Positions 88 to 10,367 of a DNA stretch of 10,367 bases are shown here, piece by piece. The stretch's first letter is position 1. Every line of letters begins with the position of its first letter. Source of the stretch: a virus (lineage: Duplodnaviria; Heunggongvirae; Uroviricota; Caudoviricetes); IMG/VR virus record IMGVR_UViG_3300032270_000270, positions 64,001 to 74,367 of that record. One strand, written 5' to 3'. The notes below the pieces were generated by a model that was not told the origin of the DNA, searched no databases, and worked only from the letters and a program-made list of their open reading frames with translations. Made by a program: the position numbers and the translations under genes.

Positions 88-681
88 TTATTTAATTTTC
101 CAATAGGATTGTACACCATATACAATCTTACTATTGCCAGTTAAACCAACATTTAATCCAAAAACTTTGTCTTTTTTAGATTTGTAAAGAAATCCTCCAA
201 AAAGAGATTTTACCTCATTAGGATTTCCTGTAACACCCCCACCAATAAATAGAGCTCCCTTAGGAGGAGCCTGCTTAGTGATGATGGTTGTCACAGTAAC
301 TGTTGGAATCTTATAGTTATATTTATAAGACCTGTTCTGTAGCTCGTTTTTATGTACTGTATCAGCTACAGTTACATAACCTAAGGTGTCTATCTTGACA
401 GTGTCAGCATAGATCTTCTTTGCTAAATGAGCAAAGACTAAAGCATCATATTGTGCTTTGAGCTTAGGGTAGTTTGTGTCTGCTATATATTCTGCAGGTA
501 GTGTGTCATGTATTATCTCTTTAACCTTTAACTTCTTGACAATCAATGAGTCATGATGTATCCAGGCTGTATCGTGTAACGTTACAGTATCAGCTTTTAT
601 CTGAGATCCAGTGCATCCTTTATGTTGAAGAGTCACTGTAAACAGTAAAACCATTACAACAAATACTAGAATTTTATTCAT
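88..681 (-). CDS. Membrane-anchored lysis-cassette protein, spanin-like candidate (197 aa)
   Basis: N-terminal hydrophobic segment (KILVFVVMVLLFTVTL) followed by KGC, a DT-rich middle region, and about four C-terminal amphipathic Gly/aromatic beta-strands ending VQSYWKIK. Sits between the holin-like gene (8-nt overlap) and the endolysin. The gene is secure; the function is inferred. Confidence 0.6.
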   Translation of the reverse strand: MNKILVFVVMVLLFTVTLQHKGCTGSQIKADTVTLHDTAWIHHDSLIVKKLKVKEIIHDTLPAEYIADTNYPKLKAQYDALVFAHLAKKIYADTVKIDTLGYVTVADTVHKNELQNRSYKYNYKIPTVTVTTIITKQAPPKGALFIGGGVTGNPNEVKSLFGGFLYKSKKDKVFGLNVGLTGNSKIVYGVQSYWKIK

Positions 682-916
682 TACCTTTTATTTTGTTTAT
701 CCATTTGTCTACAGAAGCAATACCAAAACAAGCTATAGTTAATATTTTGAATGAATCATATATGAACTCATTGACAACCAACTCTTTATGCATAGTGCCA
801 GTGATGATGTCCACTATTGCAAAAATGATCATGATTATAAAAGAAGCAAAGCCAATTACAGCTTTCTCATTAATTGAGTTGCTGTCATTAAATAAATCTG
901 AAAAGAACTTTTTCAT
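674..916 (-). CDS. Holin-like small membrane protein (80 aa)
   Basis: Two hydrophobic segments (AVIGFASFIIMIIFAIVDII; FKILTIACFGIASV) and a charged C-terminus (DKWINKIKGNE), upstream of the probable endolysin. Confidence 0.6.
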   Translation of the reverse strand: MKKFFSDLFNDSNSINEKAVIGFASFIIMIIFAIVDIITGTMHKELVVNEFIYDSFKILTIACFGIASVDKWINKIKGNE

Positions 917-1190
917 TTTCTATGTTAAATTTATTGTTAGGTAATATTGCTACATTCCTAAACACTATTGGTGTTATAGGAATTCTAGTAGGAAAGGAAG
1001 CAGCTGTTTTATAGACCTGTCTTTCCAGATTATCTATACGTGTCTTGTCTATGTTAGACTGAGCCATTAAGACTTTGACATCACCTTTGATTTCGTTTAC
1101 ATCATTCCATATCATCATAGCTAATATAGAAACTAAGGTTGGGAATGTCCAAACTTTAAAAGCCTCAAGTGTAGGGTTACTTTTTATCAT
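888..1190 (-). CDS. Hypothetical single-TM protein with short coiled coil, first gene of the lysis cassette (100 aa)
   Basis: Preferred start is MIKSNPTL at 1190 (A-rich context AAGAAA-ATG), not 1229. One TM segment (VWTFPTLVSILAMMIW), then a heptad-like stretch (VNEIKGDVKVLMAQSNIDKTRIDNLERQV). Overlaps the holin-like gene by 29 nt. Confidence 0.7.
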   Translation of the reverse strand: MIKSNPTLEAFKVWTFPTLVSILAMMIWNDVNEIKGDVKVLMAQSNIDKTRIDNLERQVYKTAASFPTRIPITPIVFRNVAILPNNKFNIENEKVLFRFI

Positions 1191-1200
1191 TTTCTTAAAG

Positions 1201-1222
1201 GGGTGTAAATAAAAATACACCC
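1201..1222. promoter_or_regulatory. Perfect 7-bp inverted repeat in the lysis-cassette leader
   Basis: GGGTGTA-AATAAAAA-TACACCC, ending 10 nt upstream of the ATG at 1190 on the minus strand. The function is unknown. Confidence 0.5.
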
Positions 1223-1281
1223 AGGACATGGATGTATAACATGGTCAGATTGACCTATTTAGGTTAAATTCTACTTCATTG

Positions 1282-1320: not shown

Positions 1321-1689
1321 TTAGTAGGGCTGATAGGACTTTTCCTCTACAAAATCACTTCCATACTTAATATTAATATCTTTTTTAATATGTGCTCTCT
1401 TGTCATTTAATATGTAAACATTTCTGGCTAACTGGACAAAGTGATCATCAAACACTTTATCTCTTTCACAATCTCTGAGCCTGTCTTCTACCTTCCAGAG
1501 AGCCTGGTTTACTTCAAGCAACCTGTCTGTCAAAGGATCATGTAATATCTCAGGATGTACAGCATCACTCAGATAATTTCTTTCTTTGAAAACATTAACT
1601 AGTTTGTCTTTGTCTGTAATGTTCAGGGCTTTGATAGAAAGTATAGTCCATTTATCTACAACTTCTCCTACAGAAACTTCAATTTTCAT
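1321..1689 (-). CDS. DUF6165-like small helical protein (122 aa)
   Basis: From ATG 1689: MKIEVSVGEVVDKWTILSIK, NQALWKVEDRLR, FVQLARNVYILNDKRAHIKKDIN, VEEKSY. These match my recollection of the DUF6165 pattern. The ATG at 1716 overlaps the gene's own predicted -7 box, so 1689 is preferred. Confidence 0.7.
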   Translation of the reverse strand: MKIEVSVGEVVDKWTILSIKALNITDKDKLVNVFKERNYLSDAVHPEILHDPLTDRLLEVNQALWKVEDRLRDCERDKVFDDHFVQLARNVYILNDKRAHIKKDINIKYGSDFVEEKSYQPY

Positions 1690-1699
1690 AGCAAAACGT

Positions 1700-1730
1700 T
1701 TTGTTATTTTCAACAAAAATACTAACTTTG
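1700..1730 (+). promoter_or_regulatory. Bacteroidota-type promoter for the glycosylation operon
   Basis: TTTG (1700-1703), 19-nt spacer, TAACTTTG (1723-1730), 17 nt before the ATG at 1748. Confidence 0.75.
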
Positions 1731-1744
1731 TTTGAAATAACCAA
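1714..1744 (-). promoter_or_regulatory. Overlapping divergent promoter for the DUF6165-like gene
   Basis: Minus strand TTG (1744-1742), 20-nt spacer, TATTTTTG (1721-1714), 24 nt before the ATG at 1689. Confidence 0.6.
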
Positions 1745-1747
1745 CAA

Positions 1748-2389
1748 ATGAAACGAGAAACTAGAATAGTAAGTATTCACAATACACCTATGGTTATATT
1801 TGAGAGTCCTGAATGTATCTCAGATGACATAGTTAAGTACAATGATTTCTGGGAATTTCAGTTATTTAATGATTGGAAAGAACACTTCCCTTCTACAGGA
1901 ATGATGTTAGATATTGGGGCTAATATAGGAGGACATTGTGTACAATTTAAACACCACTTCCCTAATCTTAAAATCATAGCATTTGAACCACATCCAGATA
2001 ACTATTCTGTTCTAAAGCAAAACACAAAAAGATACAATGATGTATCTGCAATAAATGTAGGAGTGGGTAGTAGAACATCTATTGTTTCATTTGATGATGG
2101 ACATAGTTCCAACAGTGGTGTGGTAAAGATTGTACCTAATGGAGCACATAAGAACATTGTCTTAGCTCTAGATGATGTATGGTTTGATGAGCCTGTTAAG
2201 TTTATCAAGATAGATATTGAGGGGCATGAGATGTCTGCTTTTGAAGGAATGATAAAATTAATACAAAGAGATAAACCTCTAATATGGTTAGAGGACAATA
2301 CAAGTACAGCTGTAAATTTCTTAGCTAGACTAGGATATACAACAGTTAAAAGAGACTATACAACTCCTGACTTTTTAATGTCAATATAA
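1748..2389 (+). CDS. FkbM-family SAM-dependent methyltransferase (213 aa)
   Basis: SAM-binding motif MLDIGANIGGH, then IIAFEPHP and the FkbM motif IKIDIEGHE. Its stop overlaps the next start (TAATG at 2387-2391). Confidence 0.9.
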   Translation: MKRETRIVSIHNTPMVIFESPECISDDIVKYNDFWEFQLFNDWKEHFPSTGMMLDIGANIGGHCVQFKHHFPNLKIIAFEPHPDNYSVLKQNTKRYNDVSAINVGVGSRTSIVSFDDGHSSNSGVVKIVPNGAHKNIVLALDDVWFDEPVKFIKIDIEGHEMSAFEGMIKLIQRDKPLIWLEDNTSTAVNFLARLGYTTVKRDYTTPDFLMSI

Positions 2390-3318
2390 TGAAACCAGTT
2401 TGCTTAAACTTAGAAGAGTGTAATGGATTAGGGGACCTTATATGTGCCACCCCCACCATCAAGAAACTACATGATGCATATCAAAGAAAGATCACCATCA
2501 TCTCTCAGATGCCTGAGATATTTAAAACGAATCCCTATGTAGAGAAGAGCTATAAAGCTAGTTCTATAGACATGACGTACATACAAAGTAATTACATTGT
2601 ACATAATTCATTCTATCTTGTAGGTAAGAAAGACGAGCGTGGTGTGGAGATGAAGCATAACATGATGGATATCAGACAGTTCCATGCTATACACCTAGGC
2701 TTTATGCTTGGACAAGATGAATTAGAATGCTATTACAAACCTCTAGAACCTAAGAAGAACTTCGTACATGAGAAGTATGCTGTGATACATCCTGTTAACA
2801 GCTGGCCAAATAGAACATGGTCACAAGACAATTGGCTAAAGTTATCTGAAGAGTTAGTGAAGTGGGGATACAAAGTGGTGGCTATAGGTAAAGATAGTTC
2901 TGAGACAGGGTTCTTTAATGTAAACAAACCTGTACATGATATTGATAATCAGAACGTTATCAACTTAATGAATCAAACATCTATCTCTGAGAGCTGGCAC
3001 TTGATCAATGATGCTGCAGTTGTTATAACCATGGACTCTGGCATCCTACATCTAGCAGGTACAACAGAAACACCTATACTTGAATTAGGATCTCCCATCA
3101 ACCCAGAGTTTCGTAGACCATATAGAAAGACTAGTAAGCATATATACGTAAGAGGAGGATGTGGATTACACTGCAGTTCTAATATGAAATATGCTCTTGA
3201 GTATTGGCCTACGATAGACTACGTACAGCCACTGATTGGATGTCTAGAGAAGAAAGAAACTTTTGAGTGTCATCCATCTGTAGCACAAGTGATTCACGCA
3301 ATTAACAATAACATATGA
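2389..3318 (+). CDS. Glycosyltransferase family 9 (RfaF/heptosyltransferase-like, GT-B fold; 309 aa)
   Basis: N-terminal GLGDLICATPTIKKL (catalytic-Asp motif, D16), HPVNSWPNRTW, and the GT9 signature TMDSGILHLAG. C-terminal Cys cluster C258, C262, C285, C294. Confidence 0.85.
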   Translation: MKPVCLNLEECNGLGDLICATPTIKKLHDAYQRKITIISQMPEIFKTNPYVEKSYKASSIDMTYIQSNYIVHNSFYLVGKKDERGVEMKHNMMDIRQFHAIHLGFMLGQDELECYYKPLEPKKNFVHEKYAVIHPVNSWPNRTWSQDNWLKLSEELVKWGYKVVAIGKDSSETGFFNVNKPVHDIDNQNVINLMNQTSISESWHLINDAAVVITMDSGILHLAGTTETPILELGSPINPEFRRPYRKTSKHIYVRGGCGLHCSSNMKYALEYWPTIDYVQPLIGCLEKKETFECHPSVAQVIHAINNNI

Positions 3319-5975
3319 AGAAACTATTAATCATTACTCCTCACCTATCAACAGGAGGAGCACCACAGGTAACTGTAAATAAGGTGGAACTATTACAGAA
3401 TGACTTTGACATTAAGGTGGTAGAATATGCATTCCTAGCATGGCAGTTTGTTGTGCAAAGAAATAGAATCATTAAACTAGTGGGAGATCAGAACTTCCAT
3501 TCACTAGGAGAGAATAAATATGATGAACTGTTGCAAATTCTGCAAGACTTCAAACCAGATGTAATCTCTATGGAAGAATTCCCTGAGATGTTCATGAATG
3601 AAGAATGTGCTGACTACCTATACGATGCAGAGAGACCATGGAAGATTGTAGAAACTACACATGATAGTTCATTCAATCCTAAAAACAAATACTATCTGCC
3701 TGATAAGTTTATATTTGTCAGCTCATATAACTCATTCCAATATATTATATTAAATGTACCTACAGAGGTGATTGAATATCCTATTGATAAGAAGGTTAGA
3801 AACAAGATTGAAAGACAAAAACAACTTGGCTTAGATCCTGAATACAAACACTTTGTAACTGTAGGGTTGTTTACACCACGTAAGAATCAAGCTTATGCAT
3901 TTGAATTAGCTAAGCATTTCAAGAACCACAAGGTTAAGTTTCACTTCATAGGTAACCAAGCAGGCAACTTTGAATTCTATTGGAAGCCCTTGATGGCTAA
4001 TAAACCAGACAATTGTATTGTATGGGGAGAGCGTGATGATGTAAGTGACTTCTTAAAGGCATGTGATGTATTCTTCTTTCCATCCAAAGGAGACAGAGGT
4101 AACAAGGAGTTAAATCCTATTGCCATTAAGGAAGCTATGGAATACAATGATTTGATCAAAGTGATGTATAACCTAGATGTATACTGTAACAAGTATAATG
4201 ATGCAGAGAATATGGTTTATTTAACTGGAGATCTTGGTAGTGATACTACTAATATCATCAACAAATTAAACCTAGATGTACTAGAAGAAGAGTGTATAAT
4301 CCTTGGCACATATCCAAATATTAAAGATAGAGTGCAATGGACTAAGGATACCATCCTATCTCTAAAGCCTTTAGGTAGAAAGATTATACTAGTGAGTCAC
4401 TATCCTGTAGACCAGGACATACAACGTATGGTGGATTACTATATCTATGATAAGCACAACCCTTTGACTCATCATAGTTATTACACTAGGTTTTACAATG
4501 ATAAACCAGAATACTTTGCTGAGATCAATATCAATGGACTGAAGGATAGCAATCAGTCATTGACTGTATTAACTAATATATTCAATGGTGCCAAAGTTGC
4601 TAAGGAGCTTGGATTCAAAAGATTCTTCTATACCACATATGATGTTATGTTAGATGATGATGATATACCTGCAGTGAATGAAGCGTTCAAGACAGATAAA
4701 AAGTTATATGCTGCGACTCTACCCACTCCACAATTACTAGGAATTCAGACCAATGGTATTATGTTTGATACAGACTTCTTCTTAAAAGAGTTTGATGATG
4801 TACGTACACCAGAGGAATGGAACGCTGTGTGTGAGAAAAGAGGATGTGAGAACTATCTAGAAGACTACCTATCTAAGGTGATATTTAGTTTCAATCAAAA
4901 TGATATACAATTAGTTACTAATGATGAGAGTACAATATTGACTAACAGTGGATTAGGTGTAGCATCTAATAGTGAGTATTATTCTATCATCCCTGTTGTT
5001 GGAAAACCAAACATGTACGTGTTCTATTTCTTTACATACAATAGAGACTTTAGAAACATCTATGTATCTATTGCAGATTACATGTGGAAGAGAATCATAC
5101 CAGCTAAGAACCATGAACTTGTTTATCAGTTTGAATTCAAAGGAGATCCTATAGAAGTGAGAATGGATTTCTATGATGGAGATGTATGCTATAAGGTGGA
5201 AGAGTTTACAATAAACAAAGACAACTTAGATACATACACTAATACTGGTAAGTTTGAATGGAAGAAAAAAGACAGACCAAGAATAAAATTAGTTCACATA
5301 CAAACAACATTAAATGATGAAAGAGAACAAGCAAGTAGAACATCCCTTGAACAAGTTAAAGACCATGGATGGGAATATAAGTTACACCTTAACGAGCCCT
5401 ATAAGTCATTACCACCATCATATAACTGCCTTAGACCCAGTTGTGTTTCAATGGAACTCTTCAATGAACAACAAGTTCAACAGCATGGCACTGCACTTAC
5501 CCCAGCACATTATGGATGCTATGAAGCATTCAAGAATGCCATCTTAAGTGAATTCAATAACTGTGACTACTTGATAGTGTGTGAAGGTGATTGTATCATT
5601 GAGGCATCTATTAAAGAATTCATCAAGACTGTAGAAGAGTGTGCAACTAAGCTTATAGAGAATGGAATAGAATACATGTCCTTTGGAGATAAAGATACAT
5701 TAGAATATGGCTGGCCACAAAGTCCTGTTGTCAAAGAAGTGAACGATGACATGTATGTTACAAATCATATTATAGGTTTACAATGTATCATGTTCCCTGC
5801 ACATGTAGCTCCATGGTTAAAAGATACTTTAAGAATGCATGATTGGGATGCTGCTGATATGTATTTTAATAATATCTTTGCAGGAGATAAAATGGGTATA
5901 GTTAAGAAAAGACTTACCACACAAGCAGATGGATTTTCTTTAATAGACAACATGCAAAAAACATTTAGAAAATGA
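3315..5975 (+). CDS. Multidomain glycosyltransferase: GT4 + GT-A-like middle domain + GT25-like C-terminal domain (886 aa)
   Basis: GT4: PHLSTGGAP, VGLFTPRKNQ, E-x7-E motif ELNPIAIKE (265-273). Middle domain from about residue 327: IILVSHYP, VDYYIYD, FFYTTYDVMLDDDD. C-terminal domain from about residue 654: TPAHYGCYEAF, YLIVCEGD, similar to the GT25 GC/EDD motifs. ATGA overlaps at both ends. GT4 is secure; the other two domains are tentative. Confidence 0.8.
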   Translation: MKKLLIITPHLSTGGAPQVTVNKVELLQNDFDIKVVEYAFLAWQFVVQRNRIIKLVGDQNFHSLGENKYDELLQILQDFKPDVISMEEFPEMFMNEECADYLYDAERPWKIVETTHDSSFNPKNKYYLPDKFIFVSSYNSFQYIILNVPTEVIEYPIDKKVRNKIERQKQLGLDPEYKHFVTVGLFTPRKNQAYAFELAKHFKNHKVKFHFIGNQAGNFEFYWKPLMANKPDNCIVWGERDDVSDFLKACDVFFFPSKGDRGNKELNPIAIKEAMEYNDLIKVMYNLDVYCNKYNDAENMVYLTGDLGSDTTNIINKLNLDVLEEECIILGTYPNIKDRVQWTKDTILSLKPLGRKIILVSHYPVDQDIQRMVDYYIYDKHNPLTHHSYYTRFYNDKPEYFAEININGLKDSNQSLTVLTNIFNGAKVAKELGFKRFFYTTYDVMLDDDDIPAVNEAFKTDKKLYAATLPTPQLLGIQTNGIMFDTDFFLKEFDDVRTPEEWNAVCEKRGCENYLEDYLSKVIFSFNQNDIQLVTNDESTILTNSGLGVASNSEYYSIIPVVGKPNMYVFYFFTYNRDFRNIYVSIADYMWKRIIPAKNHELVYQFEFKGDPIEVRMDFYDGDVCYKVEEFTINKDNLDTYTNTGKFEWKKKDRPRIKLVHIQTTLNDEREQASRTSLEQVKDHGWEYKLHLNEPYKSLPPSYNCLRPSCVSMELFNEQQVQQHGTALTPAHYGCYEAFKNAILSEFNNCDYLIVCEGDCIIEASIKEFIKTVEECATKLIENGIEYMSFGDKDTLEYGWPQSPVVKEVNDDMYVTNHIIGLQCIMFPAHVAPWLKDTLRMHDWDAADMYFNNIFAGDKMGIVKKRLTTQADGFSLIDNMQKTFRK

Positions 5976-6985
5976 GAATAGTACACGTAGCTACAGGGCT
6001 TATAACTATACCACCAAATGGATGGGGAGCTGTAGAAAGACTTACATGGGAATATAAACAATCCCTTGAAAAGCTTGGAGATGTTGTAGACATCAAATAT
6101 ATGAATGAGCTAGAGAAATGGCCTGATACAATTGTACATACACATCTAGCTAACCAGGCTTTGTATTGTAGAGACAAAGGTATACCTTATGTATACTCTC
6201 TACATGATCATCATACAGAATGGTATGGTAAAGATAGCTGGGTGTATAAGCAAAACCTAGAAGCTATGAAGCATAGCATTATATCTTTTACACATGCTGA
6301 GTATCTAATAGACTACTTCAGTGAGACTGATAAGTTGTTCTATCTAAGACATGGAGCCAACACAGAATTCTTTACACCAGACAATTCACCTAAACCACAA
6401 GCATTATTAATGATAGCTAACAATGGATTAGCAGGTGACTCAGGCTTTGATAGAAAAGGATTTAGATATGGTATAGAAGCAGCTAGAGAACTAGATATTC
6501 CTATCACGATTGCTGGTCATCCTAATAATGAGAAGTTCTTTGATATACATATAGAGTTAACAAACTATAAAAAGTTAACTTTAAAGTTAACAAATCCTAA
6601 TGATGAAGAAATCAAAGAACTGTATCAAGATCATAGCATTTTCTTACATCCCTCTATGCTAGAAGCAGGACATCCCAATCTAACATTATGTGAAGCAGCT
6701 AGTGTATGTATTCCTATTGTAGGAACTTACAGAGGATCTAAACACTTCCCTGGTATGTGGGTGTTACCAAACATTAGCACAGAGAGTGTAATGCATGGCA
6801 TTACAGAGACAATTAAGACATATGAGATTCGTAGAAATGAGATGATTGAAACACGTGATTCTTATAGCTGGGACAATGTAGCTAAGACATTACATAAATA
6901 CTATGAAAATGTGTTGAAGATCAATGAAGGATACACATCAGAAAGGACAAAACAATTATATATAAACGCATATGATAACATATAA
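5972..6985 (+). CDS. Glycosyltransferase family 4 (337 aa)
   Basis: MRIVHV, IPPNGWGAVE, DRKGFRYGIEAA, FLHPSMLEAGHPNLTLCEAAS, YSWDNVAK: a typical GT4 GT-B layout. Confidence 0.85.
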   Translation: MRIVHVATGLITIPPNGWGAVERLTWEYKQSLEKLGDVVDIKYMNELEKWPDTIVHTHLANQALYCRDKGIPYVYSLHDHHTEWYGKDSWVYKQNLEAMKHSIISFTHAEYLIDYFSETDKLFYLRHGANTEFFTPDNSPKPQALLMIANNGLAGDSGFDRKGFRYGIEAARELDIPITIAGHPNNEKFFDIHIELTNYKKLTLKLTNPNDEEIKELYQDHSIFLHPSMLEAGHPNLTLCEAASVCIPIVGTYRGSKHFPGMWVLPNISTESVMHGITETIKTYEIRRNEMIETRDSYSWDNVAKTLHKYYENVLKINEGYTSERTKQLYINAYDNI

Positions 6986-8048
6986 ATTAAACCATGTTGA
7001 TGGTTTGTTCTTTGAACTAATAGAAGATGGTGGTAAGAACAGAGAATATGATATACAGTTTGTAGATAGAAAAGACAATAAAACTATCTATGAAACAAAA
7101 CTAAAGCCAGGTGCGTGGGCTAGACTTAGTAGAAAGTATATATCTGATATAGCTATATTTATTAAGTATGAAGGACGTACAATTAAACAAGTAAACTTAC
7201 TAGATGAGTTTAAAGGTGAGAGGGTGTTTGTTGTATTTGAATCTAAAAGTCTTGGAGATAGCATAGCTTGGATACCATACTGTTTAGAGATGCAAGAAGT
7301 TTATAAATGTAAAGTGATTGTGTCTACATTTAAGAATGAATTGTTTGAGAGTGTATATCCTGAACTAGAGTTTGCAGACAGAGGAATAACAGTACAGAAT
7401 ATCAAAGCTAGGGTTGAACTAGGTTGGTTTTGGGATAAGGAAAAAGAACCTACACATCCTGCTACTATACCATTACAACAAGCAGCAAGTAACATATTAG
7501 CCCTACCATTTAAAGAGATACATCCTAGAATAGCATTTACACCAAGAGAAAGACCTATACCAATAGGTAACTACATTTGTATATCAACTAGATCTACAGC
7601 ACAATGTAAACACTGGTATTATTGGCCAGAGTTAATTGCTGAATTAAAAGGTAAAGGATATAGAGTTATAGAGATGTCTCAGGAAGCAGATGACTATGGA
7701 GCAGAGAAATTAGAAGATAAATCACTAGAGAATGTAATGAACTACTTGCATCATACAGAGTTATTCATAGGACTGTCTAGTGGTATCAGTTGGTTGAATT
7801 GGGGCATTGGTAAGCACACTGTAATGATTTCTAACTTCACTACACCTGATCATGAGTTCCAAAAAGAATGTACACGTATAGTTAACTTAGATGTATGTAA
7901 TGGATGTTGGAACAATCCTATGTTTAAGTTTAATAAGGGAGATTGGAACTGGTGTCCTGAACATGAAAATAGCCCTAGACATTTTGAATGTCATAAGGCT
8001 ATTTCCTTAGAATCAGTTATAAAAAAGATTACCCCTCTACTGGAATAA
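6972..8048 (+). CDS. TibC/Aah-like (autotransporter O-heptosyltransferase family) GT9 with iron-finger cysteines (358 aa)
   Basis: About 80-aa beta-rich N-terminal domain, KSLGDSIAWIPY (D96), STAQCKHW (K213), FIGLSSGISWLNW, and C309-x2-C312-x15-C328-x11-C340. Overlaps the upstream GT4 by 14 nt. Confidence 0.85.
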   Translation: MITYKLNHVDGLFFELIEDGGKNREYDIQFVDRKDNKTIYETKLKPGAWARLSRKYISDIAIFIKYEGRTIKQVNLLDEFKGERVFVVFESKSLGDSIAWIPYCLEMQEVYKCKVIVSTFKNELFESVYPELEFADRGITVQNIKARVELGWFWDKEKEPTHPATIPLQQAASNILALPFKEIHPRIAFTPRERPIPIGNYICISTRSTAQCKHWYYWPELIAELKGKGYRVIEMSQEADDYGAEKLEDKSLENVMNYLHHTELFIGLSSGISWLNWGIGKHTVMISNFTTPDHEFQKECTRIVNLDVCNGCWNNPMFKFNKGDWNWCPEHENSPRHFECHKAISLESVIKKITPLLE

Positions 8049-8117: not shown

Positions 8118-8150
8118 AAAAAAAGCAGGTATTTAAGCCTGCTTGTTTTT
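8118..8150. terminator. Bidirectional intrinsic terminator between the convergent operons
   Basis: AAGCAGG (8123-8129), TATTTAAG loop, CCTGCTT (8138-8144). An A run at 8118-8124 and GTTTTT at 8145-8150 give a U-tract on both strands. Confidence 0.8.
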
Positions 8151-8171: not shown

Positions 8172-8513
8172 CTATTTATCAAATTCATTATGTATTTCAA
8201 TAATTGTCTTTGACACCACCCCCCATTTCATCTCTTTGAATAACTCTTTTAGTTTAGTATAGTCAGCATCTTCTAGTTCCAATGTGGCTTTTCTTTCTAA
8301 CAAGGAGTCATCAAATTTACCTTCTGTTATTTCAAATGTGGATTTATGCTTATCTACTTCATTTAATAAGCGAACTCTTTTAATCATTTCATCTACACTA
8401 AAGCCTTCTTTTGTAGGGCTGTTGATAGCTGATTTTAATAGGTCATAAGTGGTTAAAAATGTGTCCCTTCCGCCAATGTTTTCTTTGGCTACTTTTAATT
8501 CAATTGATTTCAT
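8172..8513 (-). CDS. Hypothetical protein, last gene of the tail module (113 aa)
   Basis: Charged, helical-looking sequence with its own promoter upstream and the terminator downstream. No family recognised. Confidence 0.75.
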   Translation of the reverse strand: MKSIELKVAKENIGGRDTFLTTYDLLKSAINSPTKEGFSVDEMIKRVRLLNEVDKHKSTFEITEGKFDDSLLERKATLELEDADYTKLKELFKEMKWGVVSKTIIEIHNEFDK

Positions 8514-8528
8514 AGTTTATAATTTTTA

Positions 8529-8559
8529 CAAAGATAATTAATTAATTTAATTTTCCAAA
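8529..8559 (-). promoter_or_regulatory. Bacteroidota-type promoter for 8172..8513
   Basis: Minus strand TTTG (8559-8556), 19-nt spacer, TATCTTTG (8536-8529), 15 nt before the ATG at 8513. Confidence 0.75.
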
Positions 8560-8581: not shown

Positions 8582-8827
8582 TTAATTGTTATAGGTTTGG
8601 TTGTAATGTTCTATTCCTTTAACACAATGACCATCTTCAGCAAATACTTCTCCGCCTTCATCAAAAGCAAAACTTATCTGCTCTTTTTCTTTTTCAAGTA
8701 AGTATTCAACAATAGTTAATACTACTCCATAAGCTACATTATGCCCATATTGATAATCGGTTAGATTAGTTGGCTGAAAAACTTTACTTTGTATTTCCTC
8801 TTTTAATTCTTGCATTGCAGTTTTCAT
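8582..8827 (-). CDS. Small hypothetical phage protein (81 aa)
   Basis: MKTAMQEL, LLEKEKEQI, HYNQTYNN pattern, which I recall as a common small-protein type in aquatic Bacteroidota phages. Fills the gap between neighbours without overlap. Confidence 0.7.
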   Translation of the reverse strand: MKTAMQELKEEIQSKVFQPTNLTDYQYGHNVAYGVVLTIVEYLLEKEKEQISFAFDEGGEVFAEDGHCVKGIEHYNQTYNN

Positions 8828-8841
8828 AATATTGGTTTTGC

Positions 8842-8849
8842 CAAAATTA
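8842..8849 (-). promoter_or_regulatory. Isolated -7 box upstream of 8582..8827
   Basis: TAATTTTG, starting at the TAA stop of 8847..9215, 14 nt before the ATG at 8827. No -33 element at canonical spacing. Confidence 0.35.
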
Positions 8850-9215
8850 GTTCATTTCCCCTAAAATTTCATCAATAGGAGCATCTTTTCTTAAATCTGC
8901 TAAAATAGAATTTATTGTTTCAGCAGGTATTTCTACTTTTTCAGGCATTGGTGGAACATAATCCCCAATGATTGTAAGGTTTAAACTTGTAGCTACGAAC
9001 TCCCAAGCATATTGGTCGTTTGCTCCCCACTTTGTGTAATCTTCACCTGTCATATTTAAACTACCCTCTTGTAATCTTTGTTGAGCAGCATCTAAAAGGT
9101 TGTAAGTGAACATTGCACTTGTTCCTAAAGTTACATTTGAAGCCCAAGTGTTTAAGTAGATTGCTTCTACAAACTGACCATTTTGCCACATTTGAATCGG
9201 TTGAATTTCTTTCAT
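8847..9215 (-). CDS. Hypothetical protein directly downstream of the tail fibre, possibly fibre-associated (122 aa)
   Basis: Starts 1 nt after the tail-fibre stop. Beta-rich N-terminal part (IQPIQMWQNGQ, MFTYNLL, YAWEFVATSLNLTI) and an acidic, Pro-containing C-terminal extension. Confidence 0.7.
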   Translation of the reverse strand: MKEIQPIQMWQNGQFVEAIYLNTWASNVTLGTSAMFTYNLLDAAQQRLQEGSLNMTGEDYTKWGANDQYAWEFVATSLNLTIIGDYVPPMPEKVEIPAETINSILADLRKDAPIDEILGEMN

Positions 9216-9216
9216 T

Positions 9217-10367
9217 TTATTTATTTTTTAAAGTTTCTATTTCTGCTTTTAATTCTTGTACCGCCTTAATTAAAACAGGTACTAATTCCGTATATCTTAC
9301 CCCTAACATTCCATCACCATTTTTATCAATTAGTTCAGGGAATATTTTTTCTACCTCTTGTGCTATTAACCCAAGATTTTGTTTGCTAGTCTTGTCATCT
9401 TTATAAGAGAAATTAATAGTTTGTAAAGTGGATAATTTTTCTACTGCGTTCTCAATATGACTATTTATGTTTTTAAGTCTAATATCCGAGTTAGCAGTCC
9501 AAGATGTTGCACCTTGAGTTAAATAAACACCACCTGAATAGTTGGTTATGTAAAGTTTATTCCCTGTAAATTGATTAATTAAAATCATATCCCCTGCTGC
9601 CGTACCTGATAAGAATTGACCTGCAGAAGTACACGCACCTAAACTACCACCTATTGTTGGTGAAGTAATTGTGTTACTAAAAGTAATCGCAGGTGCAGTA
9701 CCTGCTGCTTTAAGTTGTTGTGCAGCCGTTGTAGAAAAGAATACTAATTTAGCACCGCTTCCGTTATCAGTAGTTCCAAGTAATAAGTTACCATCACTTG
9801 TAATATACATTCTATCATTACCCCCTGCCCTAAAAATCATTTTATCAGTTCCAAAATCATAGTCTATTTTACCCATTTGAGAACCTGTACTTGCTCTTGC
9901 AAATCTTACTCCTGCAACTCCTGTTGTAGCATTACCTTTTAAATATAAAAATGTACTTCCAACCGAAGTGTCATTTGCAGTTATATCGCCACTAGTATTT
10001 AAGTAACTATTTACGTTTAAACTTTTAGTGGTATAAAATTCTTGACCGCCTGCGCCATACCCAAACTGACCTACTAAAGTACTTGTATTATAAAAATCAA
10101 ATCCATTATCACCACCTGAAGCACCACCAACTAAAGCAACTCTTACACCACCATATATTCCTGATGCAGACCTAATAAATTTACCTGCTGTTCCTGTTGT
10201 ATATGTTGGTTCAGTACCACTATCTAAACTAAATTTACCTTCGGTTGCCGTTACACTACTAGAGAATGTAGCTGCTCCTGTGGATGCTATGGTAAGTCTT
10301 GTTGTATCGGTAATTGAACTTCCTACTGTTCCACCTGTAAATGTTTTAAATGAAAATCCACCATCTA
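9217..10367 (-). CDS. Tail fibre / receptor-binding protein with C-terminal peptidase S74 intramolecular chaperone; 5' end is outside the window
   Basis: The frame is open from 10365 to the stop at 9217-9219 (382 aa visible; begins DGGFSFKTFTGGTVGSSITDTTRLTIASTGAATFSSSV), so the track's Met at 9876 is internal. Gly/Ser/Thr-rich beta-type repeats, then the autocleavage motif SDIRLK (Ser codon 9489-9487), GLIAQEV, VRYTELVPVLIKAVQEL and a terminal coiled coil. Confidence 0.9.
   Translation of the reverse strand, partial: DGGFSFKTFTGGTVGSSITDTTRLTIASTGAATFSSSVTATEGKFSLDSGTEPTYTTGTAGKFIRSASGIYGGVRVALVGGASGGDNGFDFYNTSTLVGQFGYGAGGQEFYTTKSLNVNSYLNTSGDITANDTSVGSTFLYLKGNATTGVAGVRFARASTGSQMGKIDYDFGTDKMIFRAGGNDRMYITSDGNLLLGTTDNGSGAKLVFFSTTAAQQLKAAGTAPAITFSNTITSPTIGGSLGACTSAGQFLSGTAAGDMILINQFTGNKLYITNYSGGVYLTQGATSWTANSDIRLKNINSHIENAVEKLSTLQTINFSYKDDKTSKQNLGLIAQEVEKIFPELIDKNGDGMLGVRYTELVPVLIKAVQELKAEIETLKNK

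Follow-up and report, generated by a model that had tools for sequence, protein, structure and literature searches.

A phage operon encoding a TibC-like enzyme and further glycosyltransferase domains as a candidate glycosylation line for a collagen-like tail fibre

Introduction

What does a bacteriophage glycosylate with an operon that encodes six glycosyltransferase (GT) domains and a methyltransferase? We address this question for a locus in the last 10.4 kb (positions 64,001 to 74,367) of the 74-kb IMG/VR viral contig IMGVR_UViG_3300032270_000270 (34% GC; estimated to be 65% complete). This whole stretch of 10,367 nt is referred to here as the window. The operon consists of five genes, encoding an FkbM-family methyltransferase (gene 1), a GT9 enzyme (gene 2), a three-domain protein (gene 3), a GT4 enzyme (gene 4) and a member of the TibC/Aah family (BAHT) of protein O-glycosyltransferases (gene 5). 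A gene for a DUF6165 protein is transcribed divergently from it. The original prediction, made from the letters and a list of open reading frames (ORFs), had left the target open between a virion protein, a host protein and lipopolysaccharide (LPS). Here we describe comparative evidence that narrows the virion protein to the tail fibre. We consider it rather probable, though by no means secure, that the operon and the DUF6165 gene form a phage-encoded cytoplasmic glycosylation line for the phage's own trimeric tail fibre, acting on its proline-free, collagen-like (Gly-Ser/Thr-Ser)n region.

Results

Gene 5 belongs to the TibC family

Gene 5 scored 232.9 bits against the TIGR04414 equivalog model (cutoff 200) and matched the TibC structure 4rap over residues 28-346 with an E value of 4e-43. 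Residue roles for the comparison were taken from the published analysis of TibC, in which Thr-226 and Lys-230 bind the beta-phosphate of the donor, Trp-305 touches the sugar and Asp-110 is the catalytic base (PMC4358343). The equivalent residues of gene 5 (T209, K213, W274 and D96, respectively) are invariant in 21 phage homologues. Equally invariant are C309, C312, C328 and C340, whose spacing (x2, x15, x11) is that of the iron finger of TibC (Cys-339/342/358/370), and which would form a putative iron-binding finger. The position that sets heptose stereoselectivity is a Ser, as in AAH. Thus, the TibC-like assignment holds: gene 5 is a genuine member of the family, and its catalytic and putative iron-binding residues are intact. 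TibC itself modifies Ser, not Thr, in repetitive adhesins, and does so in the cytoplasm (PMC4358343).

Relatives of TibC are encoded in only 4 of 50,697 deposited phage genomes. Metagenomes contain more than 1,200 TibC-like relatives at 90% clustering.

Collagen-like genes near TibC-like genes

To place gene 5 within its family, a tree was built of 107 distinct TibC relatives, including those of bacterial and archaeal genomes (quick tree, midpoint root), and all loci were scanned for Gly-X-Y runs as the mark of collagen-like genes. The tree splits into two halves. In the classical half (Acetobacteraceae, Burkholderiaceae and others), none of the 54 loci had a collagen-like neighbour. As a positive control, the gene immediately downstream encoded an AIDA-repeat adhesin in all five classical loci tested, indicating that the neighbouring gene predicts the substrate in this family. 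In contrast, a proline-free (Gly-Ser/Thr-Ser)n collagen-like gene was present in 31 of the 52 loci of the half that contains gene 5, at a median distance of 1.9 kb. When loci of at least 18 kb were considered, the fraction was 21 of 25. The contrast between the halves gives a Fisher p of 3e-13, uncorrected for relatedness.

The pairing recurs in unrelated backbones, namely in crAss-like podophage relatives, in a second lineage with a convergent 3117-aa fibre and in a 735-kb megaphage, and it spans contigs of metagenome-assembled genomes (MAGs) of 25-66% GC. The collagen-like tail-fibre proteins beside the cassette (3117 to 3197 aa) are nearly pure Gly-Ser/Thr-Ser over 849-956 triplets, the longest repeat of 956 triplets being found in one fibre of 3197 aa. 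On Arenicellales chromosomes, the TibC-like gene is sandwiched by three small Gly-Ser-Ser collagen-like genes. Collagen repeats in Microcystis phage Mel-JY01 (L006) were not used as evidence, as the ORF conflicts with the deposited annotation.

Two side observations concern the wider family. In Arenicellales (L061:9063-9947, L064:8907-9962), a DUF6502 gene takes the place of GT4 or DUF6165 as the coupled partner of the TibC-like gene. In Acetobacteraceae and relatives, genes downstream of classical BAHT genes (L114:11157-13580, L117:11153-15481, L103:10979-12976) encode AIDA repeats and a Hint_2 domain with no autotransporter beta-barrel; heptosylated adhesins may be exported or processed by another route here.

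In the present contig, the collagen-like sequence lies at one end and the C-terminal part of a tail-fibre gene at the other. The N-terminus encoded at genome positions 3-662 matches the N-terminus of a 2631-aa fibre from a complete relative of 117.6 kb, whose fibre gene faces the cassette just as in the window. The two contig ends thus most likely belong to one fibre gene, with the assembly broken inside the repeat. An autotransporter, which would provide an adjacent AIDA-type substrate, was not found in the window by family search.

These neighbourhoods could also arise if some other virion protein (capsid, tail tube or another domain of the fibre) or a host protein were the one glycosylated, the collagen-like neighbour being a positional coincidence within the structural module. 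Capsid and tail-tube subunits carry the glycans in mycobacteriophages (Freeman et al. 2023, as cited in PMC12619734), the cassettes of L046 and L051 adjoin structural genes that are not collagen-like, and the fibre also has Ser-rich regions of beta type. However, a coincidence of this kind has to recur in unrelated phage backbones and again on bacterial chromosomes where no capsid or tail genes are recognised near the locus. Moreover, the adjoining gene is of the known target type in each of the classical loci tested. We therefore regard a different protein target as unlikely.

Conservation and composition of the cassette

A query of IMG/VR with gene 5 returned 44 loci. The genes for the GT9 enzyme, the 886-aa protein, the GT4 enzyme and the TibC-like enzyme occur in the same order in about 30 IMG/VR loci (about 20 distinct), to about 50% identity; conservation of gene order across phage genomes had been named as a check in the original prediction. 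Genes 4 and 5 are fused in some relatives, into proteins of about 700 aa in the second lineage (L032-L049), 738 aa in the 735-kb megaphage LR756501 and 1226 aa in Mel-JY01. The conserved order and the fusions indicate that the cassette is a functional unit. Other lineages carry inserted genes for an extra GT2, GT34-like, FkbM or PglD-like acetyltransferase protein. In distant loci, the product of the gene directly upstream of the TibC-like gene is homologous to the GT4 or GT-A domain of gene 3. A megablast search of the window against 50,697 phage records gave no match.

The DUF6165 gene, absent from the original account, is a constant member of the cassette. Nearly every related locus has it next to the cassette, and in lineage 2 it runs in the same direction as the TibC-like gene, whose stop it overlaps; both features assign it to the cassette. 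Its homologues are 122-125 aa long, which places the start at Met10 of the listed ORF. A search for homologues returned at least 7,954 proteins, none informatively named. The model of the protein (predicted local distance difference test, pLDDT, 89) gave no informative fold match, the best being the helical domain of archaeal OST1 with Z 9.1, below the meaningful level for helical bundles. A predicted complex of gene 5 with the DUF6165 protein scored 0.08 against a mark of 0.32, which is no evidence either way.

The six GT domains and the methyltransferase proposed earlier were all borne out by Pfam and TIGR matches and, for gene 3, by AlphaFold folds. Gene 1 exceeds the cutoffs of both of its models (PF05050, 61.6 bits against 22.7; TIGR01444, 78.7 bits against 37.7). 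Some, but not all, of the related loci have a close homologue (at least 50% identity), and FkbM appears from this distribution to be an optional, accessory member of the cassette that is dispensable in many relatives. Glycos_transf_1 is matched with 44.9 bits by the N-terminus of gene 3 and with 31.7 bits by gene 4 (cutoff 26.4). Gene 2 matches Glyco_transf_9 with 64.1 bits (cutoff 22). It has an RfaF-like core without the N-terminal domain of TibC; its best match in the PDB is heptosyltransferase II (1psw, E 1.5e-8), and its match to TibC is weak.

For residues 322-886 of gene 3, sequence and profile searches of the PDB and Pfam gave nothing usable, and only folding resolved the two domains. 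An AlphaFold model of this part, built from 16 homologues, reached a pLDDT of 79.8. In VIA-align comparisons, model residues 1-258 resembled glycogenin (Z 13.8) and WrtF (Z 13.9), and model residues 332-556 resembled GnT-I (Z 14.3) and the PBCV-1 capsid GT 2p73 (Z 13.0). As a pair, the GT-A domains matched human COLGALT1 in Foldseek (E 1e-10, probability 1.0), with LH3 and Mimivirus R699 also matched. The VIA-align comparison with COLGALT1 gave Z 13.1 over 381 residues (model residues 1-555) at a root-mean-square deviation of 10.7, a high value that reflects a different orientation of the domains. Features of a language-model atlas point to GT25 clusters for the last domain. Note that no match to Pfam Glyco_transf_25 at threshold was obtained for the gene 3 product; the best in a homologue had an E value of 0.061 (13.6 bits against a cutoff of 24).

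Some of these matches would fit remodelling of the host envelope (LPS core, capsule or a surface glycoprotein), for example against superinfection or against readsorption of progeny to lysed cells. The best matches of gene 2 are LPS heptosyltransferases, the weak leads for gene 3 (GT25 and WavE) are LPS families, and accessory genes are often located near tail-fibre genes. However, gene 2 is under every LPS heptosyltransferase equivalog cutoff, and by far (51.6 bits against 134.6). None of the cassette proteins has a hydrophobic segment (maximum of 1.32 in a 19-residue Kyte-Doolittle window), and all six are, by this measure, soluble. Family searches of the operon proteins found no match to flippase, polymerase, lipid-carrier, ligase or nucleotide-sugar enzyme families. 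Searches and hydrophobicity thus agree with the earlier observation that the operon holds no flippase, polymerase, membrane-anchored GT or nucleotide-sugar synthesis gene. Because nothing in the operon is membrane-bound and gene 2 scores so far below the LPS enzymes, LPS or capsule remodelling is the less likely reading. Furthermore, the family of gene 5 acts on proteins, and envelope remodelling leaves the pairing with collagen-like genes unaccounted for. Taken together, we find it quite improbable.

Multi-GT systems in viruses are also known to hypermodify DNA with glycans (Pyle et al. 2024, as cited in PMC12619734), which in the present phage would serve to evade restriction. This possibility was rejected, since a thymidylate-synthase-like hydroxymethylase is missing from the contig and from three relatives that are at least 92% complete. 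In addition, the enzyme families of the cassette are protein or oligosaccharide GTs, and neither the position in the structural module nor the link to collagen-like genes is accounted for. We give this explanation hardly any weight.

Operon architecture, flanks and host

The coordinates of all features are collected in Table 1. The coupling of the five genes was reproduced exactly from the ORF list, with successive overlaps of 1, 4, 4 and 14 nt, and the single promoter and single terminator of the original prediction were both located. The promoter was found by a search for the Bacteroidota-type pattern (TTTG, a spacer of 17-23 nt, TAnnTTTG), which occurs four times in the window against 0.64 expected, every time upstream of a gene. 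The -7 box of the operon promoter is kept in relatives. A scan for sigma-70 promoters gave 41 matches against 36 expected, which is not above chance, and the Bacteroidota motif was used instead.

Table 1. Features of the operon and its surroundings. Positions refer to the window unless marked as genome positions.
Feature	Position	Strand	Evidence or remark
Collagen-like fibre, N-terminal part	genome 3-662	-	Gly-Ser/Thr-Ser repeats; Pfam Collagen 2.3e-19
GH19 (chitinase class I-like) endolysin	genome 63480-64085 (L005:9113-9718)	-	E 1.8e-8; immediately left of window
Small membrane proteins	88-1229		Left flank of operon
Further Bacteroidota-type promoters	1282-1313 and 8529-8559	both -	Pattern search
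DUF6165 gene, 122 aa, four-helix protein	1321-1689	-	Pfam PF19662, E 1.2e-10; divergently transcribed
Bacteroidota-type promoter of operon (-33 TTTG, -7 TAnnTTTG)	1700-1730	+	Pattern search
Divergent promoter-like site for DUF6165 gene, matching that of operon	1714-1748	-	Pattern search
Gene 1, FkbM-family methyltransferase, 213 aa	1748-2389	+	PF05050 1.4e-16; TIGR01444 5.7e-22
Gene 2, GT9 glycosyltransferase, 309 aa	2389-3318	+	Pfam PF01075 1.6e-17
Gene 3, 886 aa	3315-5975	+
Gene 3 residues 1-321, GT4 (GT-B) domain	3315-4277	+	Pfam Glycos_transf_1 1.2e-11
Gene 3 residues 322-648, GT-A-fold domain and beta-rich linker	4278-5258	+	AlphaFold model
Gene 3 residues 649-886, second GT-A domain, GT25-like	5259-5975	+	AlphaFold model
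Gene 4, GT4 glycosyltransferase, 337 aa	5972-6985	+	Pfam Glycos_transf_1 1.4e-7
Gene 5, TibC/Aah-family (BAHT) protein O-glycosyltransferase, thumb-less variant	6972-8048	+	TIGR04414; PDB 4rap
Bidirectional intrinsic terminator, hairpin and T-run	8123-8144	both	Between operon and convergent tail genes
Three small genes without family match	8172-8513, 8582-8827, 8847-9215	-	Between fibre and operon
Tail-fibre gene, C-terminal part, Peptidase_S74 chaperone	9217-10365	-	Pfam PF13884 1.1e-12 and many tail-fibre PHROGs

The contig is genuinely that of a phage, with genes for a large terminase, portal, major head protein, DNA polymerase and rIIA/rIIB. The terminase shares 40% identity with its counterpart in Leptolyngbya phage Lbo-JY46 and 31% with those of Cellulophaga phi4:1-type phages (distant crAss-like relatives). 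The operon does lie between a lysis cassette and a tail-fibre module, as originally placed, with the GH19 endolysin and membrane proteins on its left and the S74 C-terminus of the fibre on its right. The endolysin, just outside the window, and the membrane proteins make up a complete lysis cassette. Two of the small genes between operon and fibre (8172-8513 and 8847-9215) recur in some relatives (L019, L020, L027, L055), and all three may encode fibre assembly factors. Among the late genes, at genome 61028-61621 on the minus strand (L005:6661-7254), lies a homing-endonuclease-like gene of NUMOD4/HNH_3 type, which also encodes a sigma-70 region 4 helix-turn-helix.

The MAG contigs that carry close relatives of the cassette have been binned to Sediminibacterium, Chitinophaga, Saprospirales and Lutibacter. 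These bins, together with the enrichment of Bacteroidota-type promoters, point to a host among the Bacteroidota, probably one that is Chitinophagaceae-like.

Discussion

From the gene content, folds, catalytic residues, gene order and neighbourhood statistics described above, we propose the following substrate, order of steps, sugars and benefit. Gene 5 would transfer the first sugar onto serines of the fibre, as its bacterial relatives do on adhesin repeats, and the GT4 enzyme of gene 4 would act together with it or directly after it. The glycan would then be extended by the GT9 enzyme and by the three domains of gene 3 (GT4, GT-A and GT25-like GT-A), and a sugar may be methylated by FkbM where this optional enzyme is present. 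The donors would be drawn from the nucleotide-sugar pools of the host. The predicted end product is a densely glycosylated, mucin-like fibre, which might gain stability, shielding from proteases or defences, or receptor binding. As for the targets that had originally been left open, the virion protein has thus been retained and narrowed to the collagen-like tail fibre by the comparative evidence, and LPS has become less likely.

Several points weigh against glycosylation of the fibre. The association is one of gene neighbourhood, and the regions around tail-fibre genes commonly collect accessory genes. Although related loci cannot be counted as independent cases, the collagen label still has to be gained or lost at least 10 times on the tree, which is a quick one with a midpoint root. 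L046 and L051 are phage loci with long flanks and have no collagen-like gene nearby. The collagen-like part of the present fibre is located outside the window, at the other contig end, and that both pieces form one gene is inferred. Phages without the cassette commonly have collagen-like fibres too, which therefore do not require glycosylation.

Gene 5 itself adds to these points. TibC recognises a folded beta-helix through a dodecameric ring, and its Arg-286 contacts N1 of the adenine, conferring specificity for ADP (PMC4358343). Gene 5 is without the ring-forming beta-hairpin thumb, with a 10-residue gap opposite TibC residues 261-270 that is common to nearly all phage homologues. Arg-286 is replaced by Val255, and most phage homologues have Val, Thr, Ala or Ile at this position; only L051 and the megaphage copy retain the Arg. 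With the thumb deleted and Arg-286 replaced, mechanism, assembly state and donor may all differ from those of TibC. No GmhA/HldE-type genes for ADP-heptose synthesis (SIS_2, CTP_transf_like) were found in this contig, and no CTP_transf_like match above cutoff in complete relatives. The loss of the adenine-contacting Arg and the failure to find heptose pathway genes suggest that the donor may be other than ADP-heptose. In the closest complete relative (L008/L052, G001:93807-93935), a 130-aa ORF to the right of its TibC-like gene has a sub-threshold match to the N-terminus of CTP_transf_like (E 0.001, 15.8 bits); the match is too weak to call it a nucleotidyltransferase.

In a broader interpretation, to which we would give even chances, a widespread, uncharacterised branch of the TibC/AAH family has exchanged beta-helical autotransporters for collagen-like proteins of the proline-free (Gly-Ser/Thr-Ser)n kind as its substrate. 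Phages would have recruited up to five more GT domains, methyltransferases and DUF6165 around it, giving a self-contained line for mucin-like glyco-collagen tail fibres of kilobase length, possibly with a donor other than ADP-heptose and with an enzyme that is not a dodecamer. Both protein glycosylation by BAHT enzymes and virus-encoded glycosylation of virions are already known. In full-text searches of the literature, no paper turned up that connects TibC-type enzymes or DUF6165 with phages, and none on glycosylated collagen-like phage fibres.

If fibre glycosylation is confirmed, an abundant group of environmental Bacteroidota phages would have tail fibres that their own enzymes glycosylate heavily. 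Host recognition, virion stability and escape from proteases or host defences would thereby gain a post-translational layer. Virus-encoded glycosylation of collagen would extend from giant viruses to phages, the BAHT family would have a second class of substrate, and DUF6165 would receive its first functional context. The cassette would also offer soluble enzymes for glycosylating recombinant collagen-like proteins in bacteria.

Comparison with known systems

A multi-domain enzyme for a virion glycan has a counterpart in chlorovirus PBCV-1, where A064R combines two GT domains with a methyltransferase and, independently of the host, builds the methylated glycan of the capsid. The GT domain of A64R (2p73) is the fold match of the C-terminal domain of gene 3 noted above. 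However, PBCV-1 is a eukaryotic algal virus with an N-linked capsid glycan, and its likeness to gene 3 is at the level of the fold only.

Another comparison is with the mycobacteriophages, whose GTs are proposed, or have been shown, to modify structural proteins of the same phage in the cytoplasm of the host (Freeman et al. 2023, as cited in PMC12619734). In that system, one or two GTs modify the C-termini of capsid and tail-tube subunits in phages of Actinobacteria. In contrast, the present, uncultured Bacteroidota phage has six GT domains and a methyltransferase, a primer of BAHT type and a collagen-like fibre as the predicted target.

Glycosylated collagen-like proteins have precedents in bacteria and viruses. 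In BclA of the Bacillus anthracis exosporium, a collagen-like triple helix, Thr residues of the Gly-X-Y repeats carry O-linked methylated oligosaccharides (PMC6222408). The system differs in its Gly-Pro-Thr repeats, in its unrelated enzymes and in that BclA is a spore surface protein rather than a phage fibre. Mimivirus collagens are a precedent within viruses, with R699 as a collagen GT (PMC9546862). As in the present phage, collagen-like proteins and glycosyltransferases are encoded by one virus (R699, R655, L230). COLGALT1/GLT25D1, LH3 and R699 are the best structural matches of gene 3 residues 322-886, which are modelled, likewise, as two tandem GT-A domains. In contrast to this likeness of fold, identity is only about 9%, and no Pfam GT25 match reaches threshold. 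Enzymes of the COLGALT1 type act on hydroxylysine, whereas the fibre repeats are nearly without Lys or Pro. Such an acceptor is thus unlikely for gene 3, given how few Lys the repeats hold. The window also lacks a hydroxylase. Only some relatives have a gene for a 2-oxoglutarate-Fe(II) oxygenase (PF13640, 1.6e-13); it follows directly on the TibC-like gene (L013:11072-11710 on the minus strand; similar ORFs in L045 and L018) and may encode a hydroxylase acting on the same fibre.

A further comparison is with TibC/AAH (PDB 4RAP/4RB4). Gene 5 departs from it in the missing dodecamer thumb and in the Val at Arg-286, in its neighbour, a collagen-like Gly-Ser/Thr-Ser fibre rather than a beta-helix autotransporter of AIDA type, and in being phage-borne, within a multi-GT operon and with no ADP-heptose pathway genes found in the phage. 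It shares with TibC/AAH the catalytic Asp, the Thr/Lys pair, the Trp and the spacing of the four-Cys finger. The arrangement is common to both: the gene for a soluble cytoplasmic enzyme, as predicted for gene 5, stands beside the gene for a long, repetitive, Ser-rich fibrous protein.

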